DNA of 32,626 nt from a virus (Duplodnaviria; Heunggongvirae; Uroviricota; Caudoviricetes): IMG/VR virus record IMGVR_UViG_2778261384_000002, one strand, 5' to 3'. The notes under the pieces are model-generated. The model was not told the origin of the DNA, made no database searches, and worked only from the letters and a program-made list of their open reading frames with translations. The position numbers and the translations under genes were made by a program. This document shows, piece after piece, positions 1 to 31,069 of the stretch. The number at the start of each line of letters is the position of its first letter. Position 1 is the first letter of the stretch.

Positions 1-237
1 ATGTACACCTATAAGATGATACAAGTACCGCCCAATATCTCAGTTAAAGCACGTGACAACAAAGCAGGAATAGCAGCAGCTTACCTTCAAGACGTGGTAA
101 ACGAACAAGCCGCCAACGGCTGGGAGTTTCAGCGGATAGACACTATTGGGATTGAAGAAAAGCCAGGGTGTTTCGGTGGCAGCAAGACAAACTTTACTCA
201 GTACTACGTTATCACTTTTAGAAAAGAAGTGGATTAA
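1..237 (+). CDS. Host small protein, DUF4177-like; may be 5'-truncated by the window edge
   Basis: 78-aa ORF starting at base 1; pattern GWEF..GCFGG..YVITFRKE resembles DUF4177-type small proteins; stop overlaps the start of the next gene (ATG at 237). Confidence 0.4.
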   Translation: MYTYKMIQVPPNISVKARDNKAGIAAAYLQDVVNEQAANGWEFQRIDTIGIEEKPGCFGGSKTNFTQYYVITFRKEVD

Positions 238-452
238 TGTTAAAAGTCTTGAGTATTCGCCTTGTGTTGTTCTACCGAGCACATGCGCCAATGTATATTC
301 GTAACAGATGTCGTCACACCCCATCTTGTTCAAAATACACACTGATTGCATTAAAGCGTTTTGGATTCGTAAAGGGGTGGAAACTAGGTTTAAAGCGGAT
401 TTATCGTTGCCGTCCACCGAATGGCGGTATTGACTACCCGCCACACAAGTAA
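237..452 (+). CDS. yidD: YidD-family membrane protein insertion efficiency factor (host)
   Basis: 71 aa; motif HTPSCSKYTLIALKRFGFVKGWKLGLKRIYRCRPPNGGIDYPP matches the conserved core of YidD (CRFTPTCSSYGIEAL...KRVLKCHP..GG.DP) as recalled. Confidence 0.65.
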   Translation: MLKVLSIRLVLFYRAHAPMYIRNRCRHTPSCSKYTLIALKRFGFVKGWKLGLKRIYRCRPPNGGIDYPPHK

Positions 453-918
453 TGCCTAAGGCCGCCATAGTCGACGGCCTTTCTCAAGACCAAAGCGTAA
501 ATTTCAGTTTTATAGTTAGCTAAATATATGTTTTTATTGTAATTTTTAAAATCTCTAAAGCATTCCCTCACCCTCAAGCCTTCACGTAAAATAATTTTTT
601 CTTTTATTTTCAATGCAATAAAAACAGGCCGATCACATTCGTGATCTTTCTGTTTTCAATTAACTGAAAAAGCACGTAATTTTTTCAGTTCCGCAGATCC
701 TTTTTAGATCCTTGCTGCGCGGGCTTTTGCGGCCCTTTATTGCAATATCCAGAACTGAAAAAAATTTCGCTACACACAAGCCGCGGGCGTGCGGGTGAGC
801 GCGGTTTTCGTCCCGCTGGCGTTCCGGTGTTCAGATTTTGACCGCGCGCCGTGTATCGAGCACCGTCAGACCTGCAGGACTGGCATAAATGACAGTGTTT
901 GCCGGAATGAGGACGTAA

Positions 919-940
919 AAAAGCCCGCCAGGCGGGCAAT
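919..940 (-). terminator. Rho-independent terminator closing the minus-strand tail operon
   Basis: On the minus strand: GCCCGC-CTG-GCGGGC hairpin followed by TTTTTT, immediately downstream of the last tail-operon ORF (ends 950). Coordinates approximate (+/-2). Confidence 0.55.
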
Positions 941-949
941 GAGAAGGGA

Positions 950-2596
950 TTAGCGTTCTATGATGGGGGATAGCTGCGCATGTAGCGTCGCAGCATTGAC
1001 AGATTCAGCCGTAAACAATGCGGCGGTTGTAGGTGGGCTACTGGGGCCGCACTGGCAGTTATGAATGTGCGCAGCGTCAGCCGCTGCCAGCCGTTGAACA
1101 ACCATCATCAGGTTATCCAACAGCACAAAAATATTTATTGCGTCCGTGCCGGTCCAACTCTTTCCGGCTTCAAAATGCTGCAATTCTTTAGCCACGCTAC
1201 GCCGCAGCTTGCCGACGACTTCAACCAACTGCCTGCCAACAGCGTGCCGGTGATCTCCTCCTGCTCCGGTGTCAATATCACCTGCGGTCATCTGCTCAAT
1301 AGCGCCCAGGGTATGCAGGATATGCGACCCGCCAACCTGTAACACATCATCACCCGTTACGCTGGCGCGACGCTCCACGACGTCCGTCTGTTCTTCATCC
1401 ACCGTCAACTTTCGCACCCGCGCAACTTCGGTCAGTGCCTGATCGGTTTCGCGGCTGACATCGCCGCGACTGTTTGTCTTATGCAGAACGCCCGCGCGTG
1501 ACTGCTGCACCTGCTCACCCGCAGCAACAGCAGGCAGCGTCAACCCCTGCGCCATTACCTGGCGGATGTGTGGGCGGTCCGGGCGTGCCTCACTGAATCC
1601 CAGTTCGACCAGTGTTCCCGGCGCGGGGTACTGCATCAGGCCGCTATCGCTTCCGCCAAACCCAACCGGCAACGGCACAGCCTGATAAACGGGGACCGTT
1701 TGATCGGGTTTCCCGTCTTCATCCAGTAACTGAACGTTGACGGCAAAGCGCGGACGGAATGGATCTGATATGTCGCTATGGCCGGTCGTGTCGCTGATAG
1801 CCTCAACGCGACCAATTTTCGGCAGGTGTAAACCTGCGGCCAGTTCCGGAAACTCCTTTTCAGCCTGGCGGCGGAATTGCGATTTTTGCGCCTCGCGGCC
1901 TTTGCTGTCTGTTACCGCCCATTTGACTGACATCTGGTCATCAGTCAGATCGATACGCTTAACCCGTTGGCCGTTAACGACAGCGCCAGGCCGCAGTGAC
2001 GGCACGCACACGATCCGCATAGTGTCGCCGCCAGTCTGCTGATCAGAAAATCCGGACGGTATATCAACGGGCAATGACGGCCATCGGGATTCCTGCCAAC
2101 TACCAACAAATACAACACCTTCGGGCAACTGCTGCCAGATATAATCCGGGATAGAAAAAGCGCGCCCCAGGTTGTTTAGCAACTGATAGCCGCTGCCTGA
2201 ATGGGTAAAGTTAGGGATCGGCGTATCGGTGTATGTCTGCCCGTCTGGCAGCGCAAACGCCAGCCCGCACTGTTCAGTAACCCAGTTACAGACATCCCGT
2301 AATGTTGGGTGCTGTATTGAACAGGGCATAGGGCGCGCCAGTATTCCCGTTAATTCACGCACCAGGATACGCTGCCAGCCCTTTTCCGCCTGCTGACTAC
2401 GCTCAACAATACCAGTGAACCAGCGCAGCATTTTTCCGGAATACCCCAGATCCAGCGCGACCATTTTTCCCTGCAAGTTTTCATCACCGGGGACCGTGAC
2501 AAAACCCAACCCAGCGCCGGACAACTCCAGCGCCAGATGTACATTAACCGGCGTTACCGTCTGCGAACCGATATAAAAACGGCTTGTTATCTTCAT
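950..2596 (-). CDS. Phage tail/baseplate protein, possibly gpD-like (late control D / hub family)
   Basis: 548 aa, last gene of the tail operon, start overlaps the upstream gene; N-terminal segment ALDLGYSGKMLRWFTGIVE resembles the P2 gpD N-terminal motif as recalled. Family assignment is tentative. Confidence 0.4.
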   Translation of the reverse strand: MKITSRFYIGSQTVTPVNVHLALELSGAGLGFVTVPGDENLQGKMVALDLGYSGKMLRWFTGIVERSQQAEKGWQRILVRELTGILARPMPCSIQHPTLRDVCNWVTEQCGLAFALPDGQTYTDTPIPNFTHSGSGYQLLNNLGRAFSIPDYIWQQLPEGVVFVGSWQESRWPSLPVDIPSGFSDQQTGGDTMRIVCVPSLRPGAVVNGQRVKRIDLTDDQMSVKWAVTDSKGREAQKSQFRRQAEKEFPELAAGLHLPKIGRVEAISDTTGHSDISDPFRPRFAVNVQLLDEDGKPDQTVPVYQAVPLPVGFGGSDSGLMQYPAPGTLVELGFSEARPDRPHIRQVMAQGLTLPAVAAGEQVQQSRAGVLHKTNSRGDVSRETDQALTEVARVRKLTVDEEQTDVVERRASVTGDDVLQVGGSHILHTLGAIEQMTAGDIDTGAGGDHRHAVGRQLVEVVGKLRRSVAKELQHFEAGKSWTGTDAINIFVLLDNLMMVVQRLAAADAAHIHNCQCGPSSPPTTAALFTAESVNAATLHAQLSPIIER

Positions 2597-3228
2597 TTGT
2601 CTTTGTCCGTTTTGACAGCTGATCCGGCTGTACCGGTTGACGTCGTATCCGCTTTTGATTCAGACGGCGACGGGGCCAGCCAGTCATCAATTTTTTTCCA
2701 GAATTTATCTGATGACGACATTTCAGTGTCTGGCGGTGTATTTTCCCCGGAAGATGCGCCCGGTGTCGTAATGCCTGGCGTCGTCTGCGAAACAACCCCG
2801 CCCAGTTTTGAAAATACATTGGCCTCTTTTTTCTCCGGTACACTGCTGTACTCCCGCAGAGTGAACGACACGTTCCACGCCCGCAGTGAATCCGATTCCG
2901 GCGCGCTCAGACGCCCGGTGAATGTCGCCTGGCGCATGTTGATCGCCGTGGCGGTGAGATTGGAAACTCGGTAAACCGTCTGCTTTCCGCCCTCGTCCAC
3001 CCCTTCCGCCAGTTCAAAAATACGCGTAAGGAATTCAACATTACGAAACGGGATCACGCCGCTGACATTTAATTCCTTTGCTTTTATCCCGCCCTCACTT
3101 TTCTGTGTTCCCGACGTCTGGCCAGACTGATCTTTGTCTTTGAACGGCAAAACAGCCTCCACTTTCAGATTCAGCATTTTTACCGTTTCGCCGTTCAGCG
3201 TTAAAATTACTGGGTGTCTCGTGCTCAT
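2593..3228 (-). CDS. Tail-operon protein of unknown function
   Basis: 211 aa; start and stop overlap the flanking ORFs (translational coupling); Ser/Thr/Pro-rich C-terminus; no motif recognised. Confidence 0.4.
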   Translation of the reverse strand: MSTRHPVILTLNGETVKMLNLKVEAVLPFKDKDQSGQTSGTQKSEGGIKAKELNVSGVIPFRNVEFLTRIFELAEGVDEGGKQTVYRVSNLTATAINMRQATFTGRLSAPESDSLRAWNVSFTLREYSSVPEKKEANVFSKLGGVVSQTTPGITTPGASSGENTPPDTEMSSSDKFWKKIDDWLAPSPSESKADTTSTGTAGSAVKTDKDK

Positions 3229-4094
3229 AGGCAGCCCTTCAAAAACGACAGATCCGCGCCAGTGAACAGCACGACAGCAGTAAAAATAAAAGAATGGCCG
3301 GGCGGGCTACTGGATTCCAACGCAGACGCCAGTGACGCACCGCCACCGCTTCCCTTCCAGGACCAGACCTGCACGGCGGTTTCGTTCAGCTTGTCAAAGT
3401 CACCAGCCAGATCAGAAACAGCCTTTTCACGCAGCTTTACCAGTTCCGCCAATGTATCGACCGGCGCGCGGGTTTTATATGCGGCCAGCATCGCCATTTC
3501 TGACAACAGCAGGCGGCGCGATTCACGGTGATTTTTTTCGATCAGGTCGCCAGACTCCGGCCACGCCGGATAGGTCAGCGCGCCGGGGCGTTGCATTTTC
3601 TGGGATTCCTTGCCAGCGTGAGCGCGGGCGGTGTTCAGTGCCTGCGTAAATCCGGGGGCGGGCAAGGTGTCACAGACTTTTGTCAGCTTGCTAATGAAGT
3701 CCCCAATCTGACCAGCGCAAACCAGTAAACAAACGGCGTCACCGCCTGCGCCCATTCTCAGATCTGCACCATCGCGCAATTTTTCGGCCAGCCTTTTGAC
3801 GGCGTTCGGCGGGCTAAGATAAGTGCCGCTTTCTTCCTCCTTACCCGCGCCAAACGTCCAGTTATGAACGGCGATTTGCTGCCCGTTCGTTGTCAGTTTA
3901 TCCAGTTCGACGCGCAGATCGGCTACCTGATCCGCCTGCCCCGCCAATTCTGGCTGCGGCCACTGCGCCCGCGATTCCAGCGCGCGCAATGCGTTAATGC
4001 CAGGGGATGACAGCGACGACAACGCACCGTTTAACGTGTCATGCGGCGTTTTCACTTCATCCGGCAGTTTTAACTGTCCATTACTCCACGCCAT
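3225..4094 (-). CDS. Tail-operon hypothetical protein (about 290 aa)
   Basis: Track ORF 3225..4187 begins with TTG; the internal ATG at 4094 has a GGAG Shine-Dalgarno about 13 nt upstream. Hydrophobic C-terminus. No family recognised. Confidence 0.35.
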   Translation of the reverse strand: MAWSNGQLKLPDEVKTPHDTLNGALSSLSSPGINALRALESRAQWPQPELAGQADQVADLRVELDKLTTNGQQIAVHNWTFGAGKEEESGTYLSPPNAVKRLAEKLRDGADLRMGAGGDAVCLLVCAGQIGDFISKLTKVCDTLPAPGFTQALNTARAHAGKESQKMQRPGALTYPAWPESGDLIEKNHRESRRLLLSEMAMLAAYKTRAPVDTLAELVKLREKAVSDLAGDFDKLNETAVQVWSWKGSGGGASLASALESSSPPGHSFIFTAVVLFTGADLSFLKGCL

Positions 4095-4567
4095 GAATAA
4101 CCCCGCTCCCATTCGCTGGAAACCAGCGCGTGTAACTGGCCGGGCGAATAACGCCAGGCATCCCGTAACTGCATAAATTCGGCACAAAACTCGCTACAAA
4201 ACCACTTTTCAGGATTCCCACGGCAAAACAGCAAAAAGCCGATAACCCCGGCGATGTCGTATTTTTTCCCCGCGTACAGGCGGTAAAAACTGGCGATTTC
4301 CTGCGGGCTGGCGCTGATTTCGATCAAGTCCCATTTGTCAGAGGGTAAAGGCATTGTTTTAGCCCTGACCCCGCCATCACGGAACGATGACGAATAGCAG
4401 GTAAAATCCGTGCCGACGTCGTAGCACTGCGGCCCCACGGCGATTTCACAATGTGAATACGGACTGCGGGTAACAAGGCGTGTCACCCAGTCCGCCAGGC
4501 GGGCCAACCCTTTGTGTTCGCTGCGCCCACGATAAAACGCAATAAAAACCGCGTTCATGGTTGCCAC
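4070..4567 (-). CDS. Hypothetical protein with permuted papain-like (peptidase C92 / YiiX-like) motifs
   Basis: 165 aa; His-containing motif SPYSHCEIAV followed later by WFCSEFCAEF resembles the His-then-Cys order of C92/YiiX-type permuted papain-fold proteins; overlaps the tail fibre assembly gene stop by 13 nt. Confidence 0.35.
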   Translation of the reverse strand: MATMNAVFIAFYRGRSEHKGLARLADWVTRLVTRSPYSHCEIAVGPQCYDVGTDFTCYSSSFRDGGVRAKTMPLPSDKWDLIEISASPQEIASFYRLYAGKKYDIAGVIGFLLFCRGNPEKWFCSEFCAEFMQLRDAWRYSPGQLHALVSSEWERGYSWRGVMDS

Positions 4568-5157
4568 CCCTGGGACCAGTCGTAAGCCTCAACGGCGGCA
4601 ATATCGTCCAGGGCATTCACTGCCGCAATATGCGCCTGCGCGACGGCAAATAACCGCATATCATGTTCAATGGTCACAACCTCAAACTGCGCGGCGATCG
4701 CGTTGGTCAGTTCAATCATGCCGTTATTTTTGGTCTGCCACATAAGGCCAGACGGAAGCGCGCCCGCCTGCCCCATTTTTGCCAGCGTCATTTGCTGAAT
4801 GCGGCTGTCTGCGTCGCTGTGAAAATGATGGCCGTTAATTTCAACGTAATCAGCCGTCAACGTGTCGCGGTGTTGTTTGATTGACTGATTAACCGTTATT
4901 TTTGCGTGTTCCAGCGCGGCGCTGAATGCATCGGTGTCGTAAACCCATTTATCACCATTCAGGCGATAAAACTCACCTGGGGGAGGCGTTGTTACCAGTT
5001 TCCCAACGGCTGGATTTACCCAACAATCGCGATCATGGTAGCGCCACTGCGTGTCAGTGACGGGCATAATTGTTTCGGGTAAAACAATATTGAATTGATC
5101 GGTATCCAGCCACTGTAGAACTTTTAAATCAATAGGATTGTAATAAGCGTATTTCAT
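4555..5157 (-). CDS. Tail fibre assembly chaperone
   Basis: Start taken at internal ATG (MKYAYYNPIDLKV...) 4 nt after the tail fibre stop, with GGTGG Shine-Dalgarno; N-terminal motif and position directly downstream of the tail fibre gene are typical of Tfa chaperones. Confidence 0.6.
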   Translation of the reverse strand: MKYAYYNPIDLKVLQWLDTDQFNIVLPETIMPVTDTQWRYHDRDCWVNPAVGKLVTTPPPGEFYRLNGDKWVYDTDAFSAALEHAKITVNQSIKQHRDTLTADYVEINGHHFHSDADSRIQQMTLAKMGQAGALPSGLMWQTKNNGMIELTNAIAAQFEVVTIEHDMRLFAVAQAHIAAVNALDDIAAVEAYDWSQGWQP

Positions 5158-5161
5158 TGAG

Positions 5162-7255
5162 TTACCACCAAATTCTGACAAAACCTGGCGAACCATTGCC
5201 GCCATTACTTTTATTCAGCCCACTACAACTACCGCCAGAACCGCCCGCGCCGTATCCTGTCCCGTTACTACAACCTGATGGAATTCCTTTCCCACCAAGC
5301 CCGAATGGGCTATTTTCGCCGTCGCCAGCGGTCCATATTGTTGATTTAAGGCCATTGAATTCAGCCGGATCCCAAACGCCACTGTTCAGTAATCCACTGC
5401 CGCCCGCGGCTGAAACACCTCCGAAACTAGAAGAACCGCCAGCACCACCAACAATCAGCGCCGTGCCTGATGCAGGGATCGCACCAGCACCGCCAGCACC
5501 TACAGCAACAGAAACAGCCGCCCCCGGCGAAACGGCGACTATTGCAATAGCAATTTGAGCGGCGCGCCCTCCTGGTGCTGGCTTGTAGTAATTGGTGGAC
5601 GATGGGGCCGCGCTGCCGCCAGCACCGCCCCCGATCATTTCCACGAAAACTTTCTTTACCCCGGCAGGGACAGTAAATGTCCCGTTTGCAGTAAACAGGG
5701 CAAAATTACCGAAATAGCGCAAATCGGCGTTTGCCGTCGTGATAAAGTCCGGCGCGCCGGTAATATCGGACCAGGAGTGTTTATGGTTGGCAGCGGCTGC
5801 GCTTACGTCGCTGTACGTCAGCGTAATATCCGCTGACAGTGCCTTATTGTTCACCTTGCGCGTTGTTGGCACGGCGTTTACGTCGCTGTACGTCAGCGCA
5901 ATGTCCGCTGACAGCGCCTTATTGTTCACCTTGCGCGTTGTCGGCACGGCGTTTACGTCGCTGTATGTCAGCGTAATATCCGCTGACAGCGCCTTATTGT
6001 TCACCTTGCGCGTTGTCGGCACAGCGTTTACGTCGCTGTACGTCAGCGTGATGTCCGCTGACAGCGCCTTATCGTTCACCTTGCGCGTTGTTGGCACGGC
6101 ATTTACGTCGCTGTACGTCAGCGCAATGTCCGCTGACAGCGCCTTATTGTTCACCTTGCGCGTTGTCGGCACGGCGTTTACGTCGCTGTATGTCAGCGTA
6201 ATATCCGCTGACAGCGCCTTATTATTCACCTTGCGCGTATCCTGCACCGCGTGAACAATGCGTGGATCATCTGCTGCGGCAACCTGCCCCGCCAATTGCC
6301 CTACGTTGCACACCGCTGCGCCACCCAGCCCCAGATTTACGCGCGACTTGCCTTTATCATCCAAATCAGCCAAGTTTTGCGCCCGGCGCAAGTAGCGCTT
6401 ATCCAGATCGTCACTGTTACGCACTGGACGTAAATCAGTGACTGCCCCATCTGCGGCAATTTCAGCAATTTTAAATACATAGTGGGTTTTCCCCGCAGCA
6501 TCCGAATATTCAGCCAGATCGCCCGACGTAATGACGCAGATATCAGTGACCGGCACGCAGGCAGTCATTACAGACCCCTGCCAGACGGTATCCAGCCAGA
6601 CGGCGGCGGGTTTAGTCCCGACCGCGACATCCTGCGCGGCTTCGTTCGCCAATCGCAAACCGGCCACATAACCCAACCCCGGCAGGCAGCTATATTTCAC
6701 CCCGCTACGTTGAACCAGCCACCCATCATCAAAAAACAGCGCACTGCCGTAATGATCGATATTCAGTAAACGCTGATAATCATCAATACCCGTCAGACGG
6801 GCGGTAAAATCGATCTGCCACGTTTCGGCAGGCGTATTAATCCCTGTCTTTTCTGCAGCACCGTTAAATTCAATCAAAAACGAGCGAGTAAACGCGTTTC
6901 CCTGTTCCGTCGCCGTCGTTTTCACCTTTTCCAGCGCCGGGACCGTTGTCACCATCGCTAAAAGGCCCGTTTTTTTGCAAATCAGGCCGATCCAGTTAAA
7001 CGAAAAATCGCCGACGTTTGTTCCCAGGGTAAACGAGTACGCTACCGTGTTTTTGTTAACCACGCCCGCAGCGTTGACGGGTTCGCGGTAAACAATTTGC
7101 GCAGCATCCGGCAGACCGGCGTCACGGTTTATCACCGCACCCGGATCAAGGCCGGGCACATTAGCCAAAACAAATTCATCCAGCGAAATGTCGCCCGGCG
7201 TCAGCAGATCAGCGGCCTGCCACTGCTCAAATGCCGTCGTGATAATTGTTGCCAT
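5162..7255 (-). CDS. Tail fibre protein with tandem fibre repeats and glycine-rich C-terminal domain
   Basis: 697 aa; six tandem 26-aa repeats (TRKVNNKALSADITLTYSDVNAVPT) typical of phage tail-fibre repeat units; Gly-rich C-terminus; follows the gpI-like gene as in P2 (H after I). Confidence 0.8.
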   Translation of the reverse strand: MATIITTAFEQWQAADLLTPGDISLDEFVLANVPGLDPGAVINRDAGLPDAAQIVYREPVNAAGVVNKNTVAYSFTLGTNVGDFSFNWIGLICKKTGLLAMVTTVPALEKVKTTATEQGNAFTRSFLIEFNGAAEKTGINTPAETWQIDFTARLTGIDDYQRLLNIDHYGSALFFDDGWLVQRSGVKYSCLPGLGYVAGLRLANEAAQDVAVGTKPAAVWLDTVWQGSVMTACVPVTDICVITSGDLAEYSDAAGKTHYVFKIAEIAADGAVTDLRPVRNSDDLDKRYLRRAQNLADLDDKGKSRVNLGLGGAAVCNVGQLAGQVAAADDPRIVHAVQDTRKVNNKALSADITLTYSDVNAVPTTRKVNNKALSADIALTYSDVNAVPTTRKVNDKALSADITLTYSDVNAVPTTRKVNNKALSADITLTYSDVNAVPTTRKVNNKALSADIALTYSDVNAVPTTRKVNNKALSADITLTYSDVSAAAANHKHSWSDITGAPDFITTANADLRYFGNFALFTANGTFTVPAGVKKVFVEMIGGGAGGSAAPSSTNYYKPAPGGRAAQIAIAIVAVSPGAAVSVAVGAGGAGAIPASGTALIVGGAGGSSSFGGVSAAGGSGLLNSGVWDPAEFNGLKSTIWTAGDGENSPFGLGGKGIPSGCSNGTGYGAGGSGGSCSGLNKSNGGNGSPGFVRIWW
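5795..6250. repeat. Tandem direct repeat, about 78 bp x 6, in-frame inside the tail fibre gene
   Basis: Unit cgtcgctgtacgtcagcgtaatatccgctgacag...ttgcgcgttgtcggcacggcgtttacgt recurs with 78-bp period and a few point differences. Coordinates approximate. Confidence 0.8.
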
Positions 7256-20618: not shown

Positions 20619-21647
20619 ATGGCAAAACGTAAAAAGCAACAACCAGCCCCCGCGCCAGCTATTCAAAAACAGATGTCTTTTAGCGTGGAATTCGGCGACG
20701 CCGAGCGCGTGCCGTGCCTGGGTTCATATGATGGCGTAACGGATGAAGGGGACGGCTACTGGACGCCGCCCATTGACCGGGAATCGCTGGCAAAATTGCC
20801 CGACATCGCAACGTACCACGGCGCATGTCTGGGGGCGCGCGCAAAAATGGTCGCTGCGGGTTTTCTGCGCGGCGGCGGTCTGACGCCTGAAACCGCGCTG
20901 GCACTGGCCGTTAATTTCGTGACATTCGGTGATGTCGCGTTGCTGAAAATCCGTAACGGTTTCGGGCAGGTTGTACGCCTTTACCCGCTGCCGTCTGTTT
21001 ATGTGCGGCGTTCCACAGATGGCAAAACAAAATTATTGTTACGCGACGGTGAATATAAAGAGTATGCCGCAAAAGATATTATCTTTATTCGTCAGTATGA
21101 TACGTTGCAGCAGATTTACGGAAAACCGGATTATTTAGGCGGAATCCAGTCGGCGATGTTAAACAGTGACGCGACCATGTTTCGCCGTAAATATTACCGC
21201 AACGGAGCGCACTTAGGTTATATCCTGTACGCGACCGATCCGGACTTATCGCCGGAAATGGAAAAAGAAATTTCAGAAAAGATAGAACAATCAAAAGGTG
21301 CAGGTAATTTCCGCAGTATGTTTATTAACATCCCCAACGGTAAACCGGACGGCGTTAAAATTATCCCAGTGGGTGATGTCGCAACAAAAGACGAATATGT
21401 GAATATTAAGCGCATATCCGCACAGGACCAGTTAACCGCCCATCGTTTCCCGCCCGGCCTTGCGGGCATCATTCCGGATAACGTGGGCGGGCTGGGCGAT
21501 CCGTTAAAAGTCCGAGCCGTATATCAATTAGATGAAGTCTGGCCCATGCAGGCGCTAATTGAGAATGCAATCAATAGTGATTCCGAAATTACCCGCGCAA
21601 TGCAGGTGTTATTCAAAAAACCGAAAGCGATAGAGGATGAAAAATAA
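20619..21647 (+). CDS. Portal protein, P2 gpQ-like
   Basis: 342 aa directly after terminase P; size and order match the P2 P-Q operon. Confidence 0.9.
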   Translation: MAKRKKQQPAPAPAIQKQMSFSVEFGDAERVPCLGSYDGVTDEGDGYWTPPIDRESLAKLPDIATYHGACLGARAKMVAAGFLRGGGLTPETALALAVNFVTFGDVALLKIRNGFGQVVRLYPLPSVYVRRSTDGKTKLLLRDGEYKEYAAKDIIFIRQYDTLQQIYGKPDYLGGIQSAMLNSDATMFRRKYYRNGAHLGYILYATDPDLSPEMEKEISEKIEQSKGAGNFRSMFINIPNGKPDGVKIIPVGDVATKDEYVNIKRISAQDQLTAHRFPPGLAGIIPDNVGGLGDPLKVRAVYQLDEVWPMQALIENAINSDSEITRAMQVLFKKPKAIEDEK

Positions 21648-21964
21648 TGGCTAAACGGTTAAAATATACCCCGTTCAAAAATAGATTAAGGGGAATCAAA
21701 TTGCGCAGCCCGAAAATTATCTGTCCGGAATGCAACGGCAATTCAACGATCAAAAAGACCGTGCGGAAACATCCCCATCTATCAGATGTTTATTGCGCCT
21801 GTAATAACGTTGAGTGCGGTCATACTTTCGTTGTAAATATGACATTTTCCCACACCCTAAGCCCCAGCGCGCTTTCATCAGACCGCGCTATCAAAACGCT
21901 TATCGATATGATGTCACCCGGCCAGCGTCAAATCGCTTTAAACCTTTTACAGCCCAACATGTAA
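21647..21964 (+). CDS. Ogr/Delta-family zinc-finger late transcription activator
   Basis: 105 aa with CPEC...(22 aa)...CACNNVECGHTF, matching the Ogr CxxC-N22-CxxxxC zinc-finger arrangement; start overlaps the portal stop. Confidence 0.7.
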   Translation: MAKRLKYTPFKNRLRGIKLRSPKIICPECNGNSTIKKTVRKHPHLSDVYCACNNVECGHTFVVNMTFSHTLSPSALSSDRAIKTLIDMMSPGQRQIALNLLQPNM

Positions 21965-21993
21965 AAAAACCGCCGTATTGGCGGTTTTTTATA
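21965..21993. terminator. Bidirectional rho-independent terminator
   Basis: AAAAAAA-CCGCCG-tatt-GGCGGT-TTTTTT hairpin with A-run and T-run, between the convergent ogr-like gene (+) and HEPN-motif gene (-). Coordinates approximate. Confidence 0.6.
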
Positions 21994-22006
21994 TCTATAA
22001 ATTTTG

Positions 22007-22786
22007 TTATTCAGTTTCTTGTAAAAGATGCTCTTGTAAATTGCTTTCGGCAGCATCAATCCAAACAGACATACTCTCAACAAAATTAGAAATATCTTCC
22101 AACGCTTTGATTAAAATATCTTTACTGAGCGTGATTTTAGTACCTTCTTTATCAAAACCATTTCTATGTACTATGTCATGTCGTATCTTTGCAATTTTAC
22201 AAACCTCTGGTATTTCTTTCTTAACATTATCTGGAACTTTCTCTCCAAGCACAGCGCCGTAAACTTGGACAGTTTTTTCAATGTTATGGTACAAGTAGTC
22301 AGAAAACTTTCGAATAGCCACGGTTTTAACTATATCTGGATTTAAGTATACGTCTTTTAATGATAATTTTTCTTTTTTTAACTCTTCAACATCATCTATT
22401 GCATTTTCAAAAAAATGATTATTCCTAAGAATTAGACTTTTTATCATGTCACCTAGACATGTTTCCATCAGAGTTATTGAATAAGAGTACATCATTTTCA
22501 ATGCTGACTCGGAAGGCTTGGAAGTAATATCGTCTTTCAATTCTTCCATTTGTTCGCTGAATTGCCTGTACGCATAATTTTCTGACCCAAGCCGGAAAAC
22601 TTCATCCTGTAAAAATTCATCTTCCCAATAATCATCATCTGTAAATTGCCCAGATAGATATTGCGCCTTTAAGTCTTCCCACTCCTCATCACCCGGCTCG
22701 ACCCCCAGATCCGCATGTTCCCTTATCCACTCAATCATAGCTTCTTCAGCTTCACAAGCCTCAATGTATCGTTTTACTGAACCCAT
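22007..22786 (-). CDS. Accessory protein with HEPN-like R-x4-H motif (candidate abortive-infection RNase)
   Basis: 259 aa in a distinctly AT-rich segment; AGGGGA Shine-Dalgarno 6 nt upstream of ATG; acidic N-terminus; C-terminal KIRHDIVHRNG contains an R-x4-H motif of the kind found in HEPN nucleases. Confidence 0.45.
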   Translation of the reverse strand: MGSVKRYIEACEAEEAMIEWIREHADLGVEPGDEEWEDLKAQYLSGQFTDDDYWEDEFLQDEVFRLGSENYAYRQFSEQMEELKDDITSKPSESALKMMYSYSITLMETCLGDMIKSLILRNNHFFENAIDDVEELKKEKLSLKDVYLNPDIVKTVAIRKFSDYLYHNIEKTVQVYGAVLGEKVPDNVKKEIPEVCKIAKIRHDIVHRNGFDKEGTKITLSKDILIKALEDISNFVESMSVWIDAAESNLQEHLLQETE

Positions 22787-23010
22787 TTTTTCCCCTATAG
22801 ATTTTTTGCAAGTAGATGTGTCTGAAATGTTAACAGCATAAGGAACATCTTATCAATACTCCCCATCACAGTTATGAAGGATTAACTTAGAAAGCATCAC
22901 ATCACGCTTTCCCCTATTCAGGTCTACCCAGCAAATTATATTCATGCTATCTAATGTTCACGGTCACAATTTAAGTATTTACCGTTTAAATACATGGGGG
23001 TTGATTTAAT

Positions 23011-23292
23011 ATGAATAATGATTTATTAGACTGGCACAAAGCCGACATAATAGCCGCAGTCCACAAAAAAGGGACATCTTTAGCCGCACTTTCTCGCGGG
23101 GTAGGTTTAGGCAGTTCAACGCTTGCAAACGCTCTCACACGTTCTTGGCCGAAAGGTGAAAAGATTATTTCCACTGCGATCGGTGTCGAACCGTGGATCA
23201 TCTGGCCGTCACGCTACCACGACCCAATCACACATGAATTTATTGATCGTGGGCGAATGATGAAAGCACCGAAAAAACAAAACAGCCTTTAG
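23011..23292 (+). CDS. Ner/Nlp-family HTH DNA-binding regulator
   Basis: 93 aa; LDWHKADIIAAVHKKGTSLAALSR...STLANALTRSWPKGE...WIIWPSRYHDPITHEFIDR closely matches E. coli Nlp / phage Mu Ner as recalled. Confidence 0.65.
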   Translation: MNNDLLDWHKADIIAAVHKKGTSLAALSRGVGLGSSTLANALTRSWPKGEKIISTAIGVEPWIIWPSRYHDPITHEFIDRGRMMKAPKKQNSL

Positions 23293-23441
23293 ATTAGAAA
23301 TAGCATTCGCGCCGCAGCCATCGCCACTTCTCCAGCTGGCATTGTCAGATGTGAAACTTTCTATTCGGCTTTATTTTGTGCTTACCCTCCCTGAATGCCC
23401 GCCCACTCGGCGGGCCCTACAGGCAAATACTGTCATTTCCG

Positions 23442-26006
23442 TCAGTGCGGTACCGCAGCACGCCAGCGCGCCATCAGTTCCGCCGTTTTATTTTTCGCCA
23501 TCGCACGCCGCCAGTGCTGGAAGGTGTCAATCAGCACTAATTCGCCGGTGTTCAGGTTTGCCCGGTAAACGTTATCGATCACCGTCGCCTGCCCGCCCTG
23601 CGCCAGTGCCAGCGATTGCGCGCGCCCCAGCGGTATTTTGCGCAATTTCGCCCACGCCATGATGCGCGCGGCCAGTTCTGCCGCCGCAGCAGTGATCGGT
23701 TTTTCAGTCTCGCGAATGACCGCCGCCGCACGTAAATAATTTTCTGCGCGCAACTGGTCCGCGTCCGAACAGTCAGCCGTCGCTATTTGATACGCCATCG
23801 CCTCGAATTCGTCAGCAGCAGACTGTTTACGCTGTTTTTTGTGCGTCAGGCACTCAGCGCGCAGGCGTTTGCGCTGTTCCCGTGTCAATTTGCCGATCAG
23901 AACCTGTTCGGGATCTCCCGGTGGCGACGAGCCGCTGTTTTTCTCTCCCAAAAAGTCTGTTTTGCTGTTTATATTTTGCTCATCTTTTGCTGTTTTTTCA
24001 GGCTCCGTACAGTTATTGACACGAGTCCTAGCGGGCGCAGACGCGCCCTTAAGGTCAAAAGATGAACAGCCATCACCGGGGCGCTCCGCGCTCTCCGGCG
24101 ATTTTTTAACAATGCGAAAATCCCGCAACCTGGTTATTACCGGCGGGATATTAATCAGCGGCATAAATACACCGCGGATAACCGTCAGATATTCGCCCCA
24201 GCTGTTAGGCTCCGGTTTATCCTGATAAAACGTGCGTAACGGTAAATCCGCGCGTTTTGCCAGCGGTCCGCCCATGAGATTAACAAAACCGCCCCAGTCG
24301 CCCGCATCCGCTGCGGCGTGGATCTCGGCAAACAGCGGATTAACCTGATCAGCGGCCTGTTGATTCCCCAGCCTCCGCAGTTCGCGGTACACCGATACCG
24401 GTACACCGCCCAAAAACTGGAACTGTCTGATCCCCCACGTAGACGCCCACGCAGTGGCGTGATGCGCCGTGTCTTTCAGTGGGCGTCCGCTTTCGTCGTC
24501 GCGCTCATTATCCAGCGCGTAACCGTCGATATTTTTTGAGACGTATTTGACGATATAGCCCGTAGCGGTCCCCCGCTCAGGATCAATCGGTTTGAAATCG
24601 AAACGCGGCTGTATACCGTGTTTCGTCGTTAATTCGTCGGCGTCCTCAGCCGTTGCGTAACGCTGCATGACGTCGCGTAGCGCCTCCTGATGCTCCGGCA
24701 GAGTGAATAACAGGCCGTGCCAGTGCGGCGTCGCGTCGTGATGCGCCTCGGCTACACGTAAGCCAAAAGCGCCGATTTCCTGGCGCGCCAGCTCGGCGCG
24801 GATACGCTGCCAGATAGTATTCAGGTATTTTTGAGACTCACGCGGGCTAACGCCCTGCCATTTGGGATTACGATGACCAAACGCGGTAAACGCGTGATAT
24901 TTTGACGGCGCGGTAATAGTAAAAAAGCTGCCGACAAATCCCTGCTCGTTTGCTACCCGCTCAAAACCGCCAATTCGCGTCATAAGCTCAGTGCGGCGGA
25001 TCGCGGGATTGGACGCGCTTTTTTCTATCTGGTCCAGCAGTGAAAAATGCTCGCCTGTTTCCACGTCTTCTATTTCTAAACGCGCCATAATGTCGCGATT
25101 ACGCTCGCGGCGCTCCCGCCAGGCGCTCACGCGTTCTTTACTACAATAGGTAGATACGCTGCGGCGCACATCGCCCAGGGCGATCCGCAAATGTTCCCGC
25201 CAGCGCACGGCGTAACGCAGTAAATTGCGGTTCCAGTAGCGCGCGTCGATCATTTTGCTGATCGCTGCCGCCAGTTCGTCGGGCAACAGACGCGTTTTGT
25301 TTGCCCCTGTCGCTGTGACGTGAAAAACGTTAGCCAGCGTTTTCAATTCAGCATAAAACCGCCGACCGGTTTCGATTTCGTCCAGGTGTCCACAATCTGC
25401 GGCAATTTCTGCCAGCGTGGCGTTTGCGTAAATTGCGACATCCTGCGCCAGCAATTCAACATCCTCCGGCGAATAATCAGGCAGTGTGTCGAAACGACGG
25501 ATCAGATCGGTGAGTTGTTCAAAATTGTGATAGAGCGGCTCAAGGCCAACAAACGGCGTTTCATAAACCCGCCCAGCATTGCGGGGCGGGTTTATGGAAT
25601 ACCGATTCATAACGGCGGAAATGTGGATTAATTCGCGGCTGGCGATATCTCGCAGCGCCAGCGCCGCGACGTGTCGCCCCTGCTTTTCGTGAGAACGTTC
25701 AACGCGCGCAATCATGCGGCGGCGGACGAATAGCGGGTACGGCTGAAAAGTGGATTTTACACGCTGCCAAAATTCGTATTCGGCGGCGAACTCCTGCGGA
25801 TCGTGTTTCGGAGTCCGATCAACGCTAATTGCTGCGCGCGGGGCGTTCCACGCGTAGGGATACGGTGTATTGTCTGCGCCGCTCCCCAGGAACGGGGGCG
25901 GCGGTGTTGGGGCGTAGCGTCCGCGCGTCAATTGATAGACGCCTTCCACTGCGCAGCTAATGGATCGATTTCGTTGTAATAGGCGGTCATAAATCCGCCT
26001 CTTCAA
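23442..26006 (-). CDS. Replication initiation endonuclease, P2 gpA-like (rolling-circle)
   Basis: 854 aa; motifs YAWNAPR, ITAPSKYH, HHDATPHWHGLLF and YIVKYVSKNIDGYALD match the gpA family; track start is TTG, true start uncertain. Confidence 0.85.
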   Translation of the reverse strand: MKRRIYDRLLQRNRSISCAVEGVYQLTRGRYAPTPPPPFLGSGADNTPYPYAWNAPRAAISVDRTPKHDPQEFAAEYEFWQRVKSTFQPYPLFVRRRMIARVERSHEKQGRHVAALALRDIASRELIHISAVMNRYSINPPRNAGRVYETPFVGLEPLYHNFEQLTDLIRRFDTLPDYSPEDVELLAQDVAIYANATLAEIAADCGHLDEIETGRRFYAELKTLANVFHVTATGANKTRLLPDELAAAISKMIDARYWNRNLLRYAVRWREHLRIALGDVRRSVSTYCSKERVSAWRERRERNRDIMARLEIEDVETGEHFSLLDQIEKSASNPAIRRTELMTRIGGFERVANEQGFVGSFFTITAPSKYHAFTAFGHRNPKWQGVSPRESQKYLNTIWQRIRAELARQEIGAFGLRVAEAHHDATPHWHGLLFTLPEHQEALRDVMQRYATAEDADELTTKHGIQPRFDFKPIDPERGTATGYIVKYVSKNIDGYALDNERDDESGRPLKDTAHHATAWASTWGIRQFQFLGGVPVSVYRELRRLGNQQAADQVNPLFAEIHAAADAGDWGGFVNLMGGPLAKRADLPLRTFYQDKPEPNSWGEYLTVIRGVFMPLINIPPVITRLRDFRIVKKSPESAERPGDGCSSFDLKGASAPARTRVNNCTEPEKTAKDEQNINSKTDFLGEKNSGSSPPGDPEQVLIGKLTREQRKRLRAECLTHKKQRKQSAADEFEAMAYQIATADCSDADQLRAENYLRAAAVIRETEKPITAAAAELAARIMAWAKLRKIPLGRAQSLALAQGGQATVIDNVYRANLNTGELVLIDTFQHWRRAMAKNKTAELMARWRAAVPH

Positions 26007-26585: not shown

Positions 26586-27588
26586 AGAATTCACTCCCCG
26601 CGCTCGCACAAAAATCGACACTGTCACAAGCTCCACAGCCGCCATCCGGGCAACCCCAAACCGCGCGGCGCTGGGTGTCACAACTACACGGACGGCCCGT
26701 AATCAGGCGACCCCCGCAATATTCACAATGTGGGATATATCCGATCACTTCTTTTGCAGGCTCGCGTTTGCTGGTATTGGCACTGACTGACCGCTGAACA
26801 TTAATTTCCTGAAATGTGAACGGTGCGTAGATTTCTCGCGTGGCGGGCGTGTCGCTGTTGGAAATAACAACCTTTGCAGCACCTCGCGCGCTTATTTCTA
26901 ATAATCTCTGAACTAAGCGGCGGTGGTTGTCCTGGCTGAAGGTCTGCCCATAATATGTGGTAAAGTCTGCTGTTTCGCTGGCGGGTAAATATGGCGGATC
27001 GCAGTAAATAACGAGATTAGGCCCGAAGGGCAGCATTGATAATGTGTCATCAAAATTCATATTGATAAACACCGCATTTGTATCATTCGCCTTTTCTGCA
27101 AACTGCCGGATCTCCTGTTCGGGAAAATACGGCGCTGTCTTATGTCGACCAAACGGAACATTGTATTCCAGTTTATTGTTATAGCGACAAACGCCGTTAT
27201 AACCGTGCCGATTCAAATAGAGAAACCGCGCCGACTGCATTAACGACAATCGCTGCGATGGATATCGGCACCAATCTTTGCGGCAACTTGAATTTAATTC
27301 ATTAAATTCTTTGCGAATCTTTAAATAATATTCTTTTGAATTACCTTCTTTGAATAATTCCCGCGCAACGCAAATAAACAGATTAGTACTATGTTTCACA
27401 TGTTCATACGTGTTTATCAGATCTGAATTAATGTCAGCTAAAACATACTTATCATAACTTGTGTTTAAAAATACCGAACCGCCGCCAACAAACGGTTCCA
27501 TCAGACAATAACCCTTCGGCAAGTGCGGCAGCAGCTCAGGCAAAGCGCGAGTTTTTCCACCTGCCCACTTCAAAAACGGTCTGATCAT
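26572..27588 (-). CDS. Dam-family N6-adenine DNA methyltransferase with Cys-rich C-terminal extension
   Basis: 338 aa; motif I EPFVGGGSVFLN and motif IV DPPY; C-terminal about 60 aa carries 10 cysteines (CEYCGG...PCSCD...GCPDGGCGACDSVDFC). Confidence 0.8.
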   Translation of the reverse strand: MIRPFLKWAGGKTRALPELLPHLPKGYCLMEPFVGGGSVFLNTSYDKYVLADINSDLINTYEHVKHSTNLFICVARELFKEGNSKEYYLKIRKEFNELNSSCRKDWCRYPSQRLSLMQSARFLYLNRHGYNGVCRYNNKLEYNVPFGRHKTAPYFPEQEIRQFAEKANDTNAVFINMNFDDTLSMLPFGPNLVIYCDPPYLPASETADFTTYYGQTFSQDNHRRLVQRLLEISARGAAKVVISNSDTPATREIYAPFTFQEINVQRSVSANTSKREPAKEVIGYIPHCEYCGGRLITGRPCSCDTQRRAVWGCPDGGCGACDSVDFCASAGSEFYDED

Positions 27589-27806
27589 TTTTTATATTCC
27601 TTGTTATATCGTTCGTGAGTTAATAAAGTCCATTGCTGGCCGTCGTTTTTACTCAGTAACCGCCAACATCTGCCGATTGCAATTGACAGATAACCAGTCG
27701 CCAGCCGCCGCACTTTATCGCGGCGACCCTGTCGGAATTCACTAATTAAATTGTGTGCCTGATCAACAACGTAGGCGGGGCAATTATCATTTTTCCGGCG
27801 AATCAT
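27585..27806 (-). CDS. Small hypothetical early protein
   Basis: 73 aa, basic; overlaps both neighbours in the early operon; no motif recognised. Confidence 0.3.
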   Translation of the reverse strand: MIRRKNDNCPAYVVDQAHNLISEFRQGRRDKVRRLATGYLSIAIGRCWRLLSKNDGQQWTLLTHERYNKEYKK

Positions 27807-30198: not shown

Positions 30199-30648
30199 AT
30201 GTCAAAAGATAATGATACATTTATACCCCCAATACGCCCACCTCGTAATTCCCGCTATGGAGAACCATCACCAGAACTTATGAAAAGGCTACAACAAGTT
30301 ACCCCTGAATTATTCGCTGAATTTTTGATGTCAAAAAACGCCGCTCAGTTCTGCATATCATGTGGATTCACTAAATTAACAATGTCCGAAAATGGAGTTT
30401 ATAGTGGCGCGAAGATTCCCGAGAACTATGATTCTTTATCGCAAATCGATCAGGAAAAATTCGTAGGTGATAATACTCTCTGGTATGTAACGCCCGTGTT
30501 TGTGAATACTCATACAAAAATAAGATTAGCCGATGTCGAATATAAAATTAATTGCCCAAACTGCGGGCATATCAGCATTTATCGCGCCCGCCCGGTCGTC
30601 GCATGGATAGAAGAGAATCGCAAGGAATGCAAAAATGAGTCAGACTAA
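30199..30648 (+). CDS. Hypothetical zinc-ribbon protein (accessory cassette gene 1)
   Basis: 149 aa; AGGA Shine-Dalgarno; two CxxC pairs (CISCG and CPNCG) about 68 residues apart; AT-rich codon usage unlike the phage core. Confidence 0.5.
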   Translation: MSKDNDTFIPPIRPPRNSRYGEPSPELMKRLQQVTPELFAEFLMSKNAAQFCISCGFTKLTMSENGVYSGAKIPENYDSLSQIDQEKFVGDNTLWYVTPVFVNTHTKIRLADVEYKINCPNCGHISIYRARPVVAWIEENRKECKNESD

Positions 30649-31069
30649 GGATAATGTTCATCATATAAGAGAACGTCAGGTACCCATAAATAATGAGTCC
30701 ACAAACAGTAGTGACGACGGAGGCAACGGCATGAACAGCCTAATAAAACGCGTTGAAAAACTTGAAGACAATACCGGTGTAATTGTTAAAGAACTTACCC
30801 ATCTCAATGCGCGCGCTGATGACTTCGCCTCAAAGGGAGATCTGCGTGAACTCAAGGCGCAGATAACTGGGGATATGAAAGAACTCCGTGCGCAGATGAC
30901 CGGAGATATGCGCGAGCTTAAGGCACAGATTAGCGGCGAACTCAAAGAGTCCAGGTCAGCAGCCAGGGAAGATCTTGCAAAGGGATTACATAAGCAAATG
31001 ATATGGCTATGCTCTGCCCTTTTCGCTACAGCAGGAGTCATAATCGCTTTGGCAAAAGGTCTGCTCTAA
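30635..31069 (+). CDS. Coiled-coil protein with C-terminal transmembrane anchor (accessory cassette gene 2)
   Basis: 144 aa; start overlaps gene 1 by 14 nt with AAGGAA Shine-Dalgarno; three and a half 11-residue repeats (GDLRELKAQIT / GDMKELRAQMT / GDMRELKAQIS); hydrophobic C-terminus MIWLCSALFATAGVIIALA. Confidence 0.5.
   Translation: MSQTKDNVHHIRERQVPINNESTNSSDDGGNGMNSLIKRVEKLEDNTGVIVKELTHLNARADDFASKGDLRELKAQITGDMKELRAQMTGDMRELKAQISGELKESRSAAREDLAKGLHKQMIWLCSALFATAGVIIALAKGLL

Follow-up and report, generated by a model that had tools for sequence, protein, structure and literature searches.

The window analysed here is a 32,626-nucleotide (nt) stretch of viral DNA (IMG/VR record IMGVR_UViG_2778261384_000002; Duplodnaviria; Heunggongvirae; Uroviricota; Caudoviricetes) and represents a distant P2-like prophage of Escherichia coli, integrated beside mipA. 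It carries a minus-strand open reading frame (ORF) of 259 amino acids (aa) that encodes a protein with a HEPN domain, the subject of this report. The terminase, portal and Ogr/Delta zinc-finger genes lie on one side of this HEPN gene, while a gene for a helix-turn-helix (HTH) protein of the HTH_35 type (Ner/SfsB-like) and the replication gene gpA lie on the other. Coordinates are collected in Table 1.

An exchangeable gene between gpA and the portal gene

The HEPN gene is sharply set off by its composition. The G+C content (GC) in 300-nt windows was 0.30–0.33 across the gene, as compared with 0.50–0.60 in the neighbouring phage genes; it was 0.355 for the ORF, 0.348 for the intergenic region upstream, 0.465 for the HTH_35 gene and 0.502 for the whole window. 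A Shine-Dalgarno sequence precedes the ATG by 4 nt. Downstream, a hairpin (CCGCC-N5-GGCGG at 21970–21984) is flanked by an A-run and a T-run and folds at −16.0 and −15.5 kcal/mol on the two strands (z −5.4 and −4.5; none of 200 shuffles was as stable). As the folding is strong on both strands, the hairpin can terminate both ogr and the HEPN gene. The untranslated region upstream of the HEPN gene, 224 nt long, is the divergent intergenic region shared with the HTH_35 gene, and contains blocks that are conserved in Escherichia albertii. One of these includes a promoter-like site, although the consensus scan that located it returned no more sites than expected from shuffled sequence.

Comparison with the 80%-identical E. 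albertii ortholog gave a ratio of nonsynonymous to synonymous substitution rates (dN/dS) of 0.127 for the gene as a whole (N-terminal part, 0.115; HEPN part, 0.133). The HEPN gene is therefore real and under purifying selection. Among 5,426 complete E. coli genomes, the island was found 100% identical in six and 99.9% identical in one, and the encoded 259-aa product was 100% identical in all seven. In strain 40EC, the Prokaryotic Genome Annotation Pipeline (PGAP) annotates only 161 aa, and the match to the island has a 1-nt indel. A pseudogene was considered in this strain and rejected; the indel falls in an A/T run between the Shine-Dalgarno sequence and the ATG, is the sole difference there, and leaves the ORF intact. 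The lower identity of 40EC likewise permits no inference that the island is younger than the backbone, the difference being confined to another gpA allele while the portal, ogr and sfsB proteins are the same. In the phage database, neither the island nor 8.5 kb of backbone had a nucleotide match at the megablast level, and only six weak matches were obtained with protein.

A sibling prophage in strain N1420 shows that the locus is variable. Its gpA is 94% identical and its terminase-portal-ogr DNA about 80% identical to those of the window, yet it carries one unrelated, AT-rich gene of 440 aa between gpA and portal/ogr. As this unrelated gene occupies the same site, the HEPN gene is exchangeable cargo and not a core gene. 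Both the HTH_35 gene and the HEPN gene are missing from N1420, and nucleotide homology stops at 21918 and resumes at 23451, so the swapped segment includes the HTH_35 gene as well. The N1420 cargo itself (positions 5503–6825 of its locus; GC 0.366) encodes a protein without a Pfam match, and is another single-gene candidate.

The gpA–gpQ interval, gpQ being the portal gene, is the site of tin and old in P2. According to Rousset et al. (2022; PMC9122126), this hotspot comes in 1,650 arrangements, a large number of which are anti-phage, and their Table S5A includes exactly this locus (WP_087603724). The window gene has the features of such hotspot cargo, since it lies between gpA and gpQ and varies among related prophages.

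A sequence-only reading of the window had placed an AT-rich ORF of 259 aa, with its own Shine-Dalgarno sequence and a bidirectional terminator, between the packaging and late-activator genes and gene A, at a position equivalent to tin/old. ORF calls, GC, gene order, the motif read before the ATG and the folding on both strands all bear this out, as do the hotspot survey and the different gene in the sibling. Its description of a single-gene island needs qualification: the AT-rich trough does hold one gene, but the swapped segment extends over about 21919–23450 and takes in the divergent HTH_35 gene.

Table 1. Features at the HEPN locus, with positions in the window
Feature	Position	Strand	Remarks
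Variable cassette	21919..23450		Defined against the N1420 sibling; blastn homology stops at 21918, resumes at 23451
Intrinsic terminator, bidirectional	21963..21990	both	Common to ogr (plus) and HEPN gene (minus); folding, U-runs on both strands
HEPN ORF, 259 aa, ATG start	22007..22786	minus	Protein identical to WP_087603724.1
HEPN domain, codons 91–259	22010..22516	minus	
Catalytic Rx4H motif, R202-H-D-I-V-H207	22166..22183	minus	Codons CGA CAT GAC ATA GTA CAT, read directly
Acidic all-helical N-terminal domain, codons 1–90	22517..22786	minus	Proposed sensor or autoinhibitory module
Protospacer (22709–22740) and AAG protospacer-adjacent motif (PAM; 22741–22743)	22709..22743	minus	Inside HEPN ORF; type I-E E. 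coli spacer
Shine-Dalgarno AGGGGA, 4 nt before ATG	22791..22796	minus	Read directly from the letters
Promoter-like site TTGATA-18-TAACAT, extended TG	22827..22856	minus	Consensus scan; weak evidence
HTH_35 (Ner/SfsB-like) gene, 93 aa	23011..23292	plus	Divergent from HEPN gene; Pfam HTH_35, E 5.7e-32

The HEPN protein, its family and its genomic contexts

The Pfam family PF18735 (HEPN_RiboL-PSP) matched residues 83–241 of the protein (29.2 bits, E 1.1e-6; model positions 13–187 of 191), and was also called on many of its homologs. Residues 200–210 read KIRHDIVHRNG, giving R202-x4-H207. The string RHDIVHRNG was kept unchanged across 46 homologs, each of which thus has the Rx4-6H motif of the HEPN superfamily; R202, H203, V206, H207, R208, N209, G210, E108 and H167 were invariant in the 46 aligned sequences, down to 21% overall identity. 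An AlphaFold2 model built from these homologs was confident and all-helical (predicted local distance difference test score, pLDDT, 89.5; predicted template modelling score, pTM, 0.76), and had the all-alpha, up-and-down helical bundle of the superfamily. The profile match is backed by the predicted fold, the invariant motif and the purifying selection, which together place the window protein in the HEPN superfamily and, by a small margin, in PF18735. A feature of the superfamily is metal-independent ribonuclease (RNase) activity from a composite active site formed in a dimer, and the window protein is predicted to have RNase activity and to dimerise or oligomerise. Sequence relatives in the PDB amounted to chance-level matches to RNF213, and a structure search of BFVD returned weak matches only, one of them to a MAE_28990-like phage HEPN protein.

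The first 90 residues are strongly acidic, with 27 D/E as compared with 8 K/R, an isoelectric point of about 4.05 and a net charge of about −19. They form four helices in the AlphaFold2 model (pLDDT 64–91), and a Pfam scan of this region gave no match. Acidity of the N-terminus persists family-wide, including clades with a replaced N-terminal sequence (identity of about 20% there, as against about 40% in the C-terminal region). The sequence-only reading had proposed both a HEPN motif and an acidic N-terminal domain that it could not recognize, and had staked itself on the fold and on the gene not being a core gene. On each of these points the present analysis agrees with it: the fold came out as HEPN, the motif is invariant, the charge and the Pfam scan are as it described, and the gene is not shared by all related prophages.

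A profile search of 1.84 billion representatives yielded 2,232 clusters at 50% identity, 798 of them at E ≤ 1e-30. In this family the HEPN core nearly always lies at the C-terminus; the N-terminal regions vary and span 0 to about 400 aa. In longer members the core is fused to HEPN/Toprim N-terminal domain 1, HEPN/RES-NTD1, an ABC/SMC-type ATPase, HNH, HARE-HTH or treble-clef zinc-finger repeats. Such combinatorial fusion at the N-terminus is a predicted sensor–effector pattern of the kind typical of defence proteins, and the family context points to conflict systems.

Fourteen genomic contexts of HEPN homologs were compared, and no neighbouring gene recurred across independent lineages. In E. 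albertii a homolog occupies the same slot together with HTH_35. A decayed P2-like remnant on a metagenome scaffold (positions 1–7000), beside fieF-pfkA-sbp, retains an intact HEPN gene (82% identical), HTH_35 and ogr, while its gpA is truncated (362 aa) and its portal gene is fragmented (82 and 184 aa). This suggests that the cassette is retained after the phage dies. In another P2-like prophage a 79%-identical homolog lies 131 nt from gpA, with no HTH_35 between. Further homologs lie beside umuDC/SRAP in prophage-like accessory regions of Enterobacter (next to tail-fibre and invertase genes) and Buttiauxella; in integrase islets of Cronobacter and of a metagenome; and in conjugative elements or integrative and conjugative elements (ICEs) of Yersinia and Pectobacterium and in an element of the AcaB/TraR type. 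The metagenomic islet (positions 5001–6942) contains two convergent HEPN paralogs (254 and 258 aa) with a 97-aa ORF between them. Plasmids carrying homologs numbered 278, of which 223 were predicted to be conjugative. The homologous genes are usually AT-rich compared with their surroundings. We conclude that the HEPN gene moves alone between many kinds of mobile element.

Neither a protein nor an RNA was found as an obligate partner; the sequence-only reading had likewise seen no partner gene in the window. The gene has the features of a solo HEPN gene, at an accessory prophage site and with no conserved partner. A nucleotidyltransferase (MNT) gene was not present beside the HEPN homologs in any context examined, the neighbours in the window being Ogr/Delta and HTH_35. 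The most fitting reading of the HTH_35 gene is that of a facultative neighbour specific to one lineage; it may be a regulator, the divergent promoter region being common to both genes.

Some copies have defence genes as neighbours. On the IncX1/X3 plasmid NZ_CP069446.1 (positions 4764–7084 of that locus), a 314-aa paralog, 33% identical, has an ApeA homolog (ApeA_NTD1 and HEPN_Apea) directly downstream, and the two may form a two-HEPN defence locus. The same arrangement was seen on about 270 similar conjugative IncX-type plasmids of Salmonella and E. coli (approximately 32–36 kb), near hns/hha/topB. Other copies lie near HEPN_RES_NTD1-RES and AAA_15/21 genes.

Candidate functions of the HEPN protein

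Among known systems, two offer the closest parallels in how the window protein may work. HepS, from the Gifsy-1 prophage of Salmonella (Sargen et al., 2026; PMC13043305; PDB 9oik), is a solo HEPN protein that is made constitutively and stays inactive and non-toxic until a phage tail-tip protein binds it; once triggered, it cleaves the anticodon loops of transfer RNA (tRNA). Each is a single HEPN-domain protein of 200–260 aa whose gene occupies an accessory site in a temperate prophage; each has the canonical Rx4-6H motif, and neither is accompanied by a partner or inhibitor. HepS shows that one such protein can sense a phage and execute abortive infection, as is proposed here for the window protein, but a test for sequence homology between the two was negative. 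ApeA (Gao et al., 2020), a single-protein HEPN defence, likewise needs one gene only, whose product joins a variable N-terminal domain to a HEPN effector at the C-terminus, and it too occurs in P2/P4 hotspots; it belongs, however, to the Pfam families ApeA_NTD1 and HEPN_Apea, neither of which the window protein matches.

Nearly the whole of the PF18735 model is matched, and this ‘Ribo L-PSP-HEPN’ family was scored Rx4-6H-positive (Anantharaman et al., 2013; PMC3710099). The window protein nevertheless has neither the endoRNase L-PSP fusion nor the ParB operon context of that family, and its enterobacterial clade has the acidic domain of about 90 aa instead. The lactococcal proteins AbiD, AbiD1 and AbiF (Abi_2), described as the nearest HEPN relatives of the Ribo L-PSP-HEPN family (Anantharaman et al., 2013), are also encoded by mobile elements and act as abortive-infection (Abi) effectors, but the window protein gave no Abi_2 match (Pfam, E ≤ 1) and no PADLOC match. 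AbiF requires a conserved upstream non-coding RNA antitoxin (PMC13064643), and none is conserved in the window family. Type II/VII HEPN-MNT toxin–antitoxin (TA) systems differ in having an MNT antitoxin gene. With tin and old of P2, which mediate exclusion of other phages by the prophage, the gene shares the slot between gpA and gpQ; the proteins are unrelated, and position alone is common to them. Old is an ABC ATPase with a Toprim nuclease, and Tin is not a HEPN protein. Because the sequence tests and the tests for defining partners all failed, the window protein is not a member of the HepS, ApeA, Abi_2 or HEPN-MNT families. By analogy, it would work most like HepS or ApeA, as a one-protein sensor joined to a HEPN effector.

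On balance, we lean towards the view that the protein is a HEPN-RNase-based defence effector. It would most likely act as a self-contained abortive-infection RNase in which the acidic N-terminal domain gates the HEPN effector, the latent state being proposed because of the analogy with HepS. Expressed in the lysogen from the gene's own promoter, the protein would be latent, with the strongly acidic, helical N-terminal domain either keeping the C-terminal HEPN domain inactive or serving as a sensor. A product of a superinfecting phage, or of another invading element, would lift the block. Pairing of the HEPN domains would next bring two Rx4H motifs together into an active RNase site; an essential RNA (tRNA, ribosomal RNA or messenger RNA) would be cleaved, translation would stop and the infection would be aborted. 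Context and analogy are what suggests the anti-phage role, which the sequence-only reading had also put forward; the N-terminal gating, the trigger and the RNA target are proposals.

A more specific version of the gating is unlikely, but has a wide reach. The acidic N-terminal domain could be an intramolecular nucleic-acid mimic lying on the RNA-binding face of the HEPN domain, a built-in antitoxin that is titrated off by a basic, nucleic-acid-binding protein of an invading phage or plasmid. If true, the acidic mimic would define a new, single-chain, ‘decoy-gated’ class of HEPN Abi systems, whose roughly 2,200 protein clusters are spread over prophages, ICEs and IncX plasmids.

Several points weigh against a gated defence effector. 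None of the PADLOC models matched the window protein, and no experimental or functional study of any PF18735-family member was found in the searched literature. The PF18735 score exceeds the gathering cutoff of 28.4 bits by only 0.8 bits, and is marginal taken alone. The case for gating by the N-terminal domain consists of charge conservation and domain swapping only. Rousset et al. (2022) point out that partition systems, toxins and other cargo unconnected with defence are carried at the gpA–gpQ hotspot too; activity was shown by only three of eight further P2-hotspot systems that they cloned, and a P2-borne ‘putative HEPN’ unrelated to the window protein (pFR103) appears solely in the list of additional tested systems, not with those that were validated. 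A search of that paper for the WP_087603724 locus among the cloned or tested systems gave no record of it. We set pFR103 aside as evidence on the window gene; its protein (MNDIFVLTREELE...) looks unrelated by inspection, so that its result says nothing about the HEPN gene studied here.

The HEPN protein might instead serve the phage or element that carries it, in host or phage RNA processing at induction, in counter-defence, or in competition between plasmids or other elements. Conjugative plasmids and ICEs carry the family as commonly as prophages do, which fits such a role, as do the non-defence cargo of the hotspot and the charge of the N-terminus, which could make it a nucleic-acid mimic such as those of anti-restriction proteins. 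The decayed remnant, however, can neither replicate nor package and yet has kept an intact copy, which argues for a benefit at the level of the host. The gene is, moreover, not conserved among sibling prophages, and it is found in the company of ApeA, RES and OLD-like ATPase genes. We therefore regard a role for the element itself as unlikely.

A second possibility is an addiction or stabilisation module, in which the HEPN protein is a toxin with the divergent HTH_35 protein as repressor or antitoxin, and the two maintain the prophage rather than exclude phages. Compared with N1420 the two genes were exchanged together, they are found side by side in E. albertii and in the prophage remnant, and the divergent region that they share contains conserved blocks; in the accessible part of Table S5A of Rousset et al. 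(2022), HTH_35 is found only with this HEPN gene. These linked copies all belong to one orthologous lineage, however, and thus reflect a single evolutionary event. HTH_35 does not separate the 79%-identical homolog from gpA in the other P2-like prophage, nor is it near the homologs in eight other independent contexts, and the two genes are divergent rather than arranged as an operon. An addiction module is accordingly rather improbable.

A type III TA system, with the HEPN RNase neutralised by a small non-coding RNA encoded directly upstream, as for AbiF, AbiD or AbiV, is very improbable. AbiF and AbiV are now known to be protein–RNA systems of this type with the RNA upstream (PMC13064643), and the 224-nt region of the window would offer room for one. 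Nevertheless, the 400 nt upstream had no similarity between independent contexts in which the coding sequences are similar, and several homologs have an upstream gap of only 30–130 nt or overlap the ORF upstream. In the E. albertii pair, identity was equal upstream (82.3%), in the coding sequence (82.1%) and downstream (82.4%), unlike the AbiD/F pattern, and the protein has no Abi_2 Pfam match. With neither conservation, nor tandem repeats, nor an Rfam family above threshold upstream, an antitoxin RNA like that of AbiF or ToxI was rejected, purely structural RNAs apart. That the HEPN protein is non-catalytic, binding a ligand or acting as a scaffold and lacking RNase activity, is equally hard to credit, given the absolute invariance of R-x4-H, its flanking residues, E108 and H167 in 46 sequences down to 21% identity, and the Rx4-6H-positive scoring of the Ribo L-PSP-HEPN family by Anantharaman et al. 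(2013).

CRISPR memory, other variable loci and significance

The HEPN gene contains a protospacer that matches, at 32 of 32 positions, the leader-proximal (newest) spacer of the ygcE-queE CRISPR array of E. coli LR-28 (positions 2789–3061 of that locus), with a canonical AAG PAM on the spacer-sense strand. The perfect match together with the PAM indicates a natural type I-E spacer of E. coli, acquired either from the HEPN cargo gene or from another, identical copy of it. Spacers that perfectly match the portal gene (20702–20736) and gpA (about 23500–24150) of this prophage are present in at least 20 further complete E. coli genomes. The prophage lineage itself is present in only 7–8 of the 5,426 E. 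coli genomes. The CRISPR memory of E. coli seems to be directed unusually often at this rare P2-like lineage.

Other parts of the prophage also vary. Two plus-strand ORFs (149 and 144 aa; 30199–31069) separate a HTH gene of the immunity region from the integrase gene; the N1420 sibling has genes for a membrane protein and a WYL-domain protein there, making this a second variable cargo site in the lineage. A ParE-like toxin gene of 73 aa (27585–27806, minus strand) overlaps the ends of the Dam methylase and 3′–5′ exonuclease genes in the early operon, has no annotated adjacent antitoxin and is absent from N1420. In P2, ogr lies near att/int. In the window, the Ogr/Delta late activator gene (21647–21964) is directly downstream of the portal gene, with an ATGA overlap, and adjoins the hotspot; the pipeline of Rousset et al. 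(2022) counted ogr as hotspot content. The P2 cos sequence had no match in the window with up to three mismatches, and cos was not located.

The HEPN gene is already annotated by PGAP and catalogued in the hotspot survey, and it is a familiar kind of gene in a mapped defence hotspot. The sequence-only reading had called it uncharacterised, which holds for experiment but not for annotation, as PGAP names the product ‘HEPN domain-containing protein’, the family to which the Pfam entry corresponds was described in 2013 and the locus stands in Table S5A of Rousset et al. (2022). As it stands, the gene is the kind of cargo expected at such a site and would not surprise a specialist; its value is that of a well-prioritised candidate. 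The clade spreads alone among P2-like prophages, other prophage-like or integrase-bearing islands, ICEs and the common IncX plasmids of Salmonella and E. coli. If the protein is active, it would provide the first functional assignment for the PF18735 (RiboL-PSP) HEPN clade, and a second paradigm of solo-HEPN abortive infection beside HepS, in a single-chain sensor–effector of 259 aa that would be easy to dissect.
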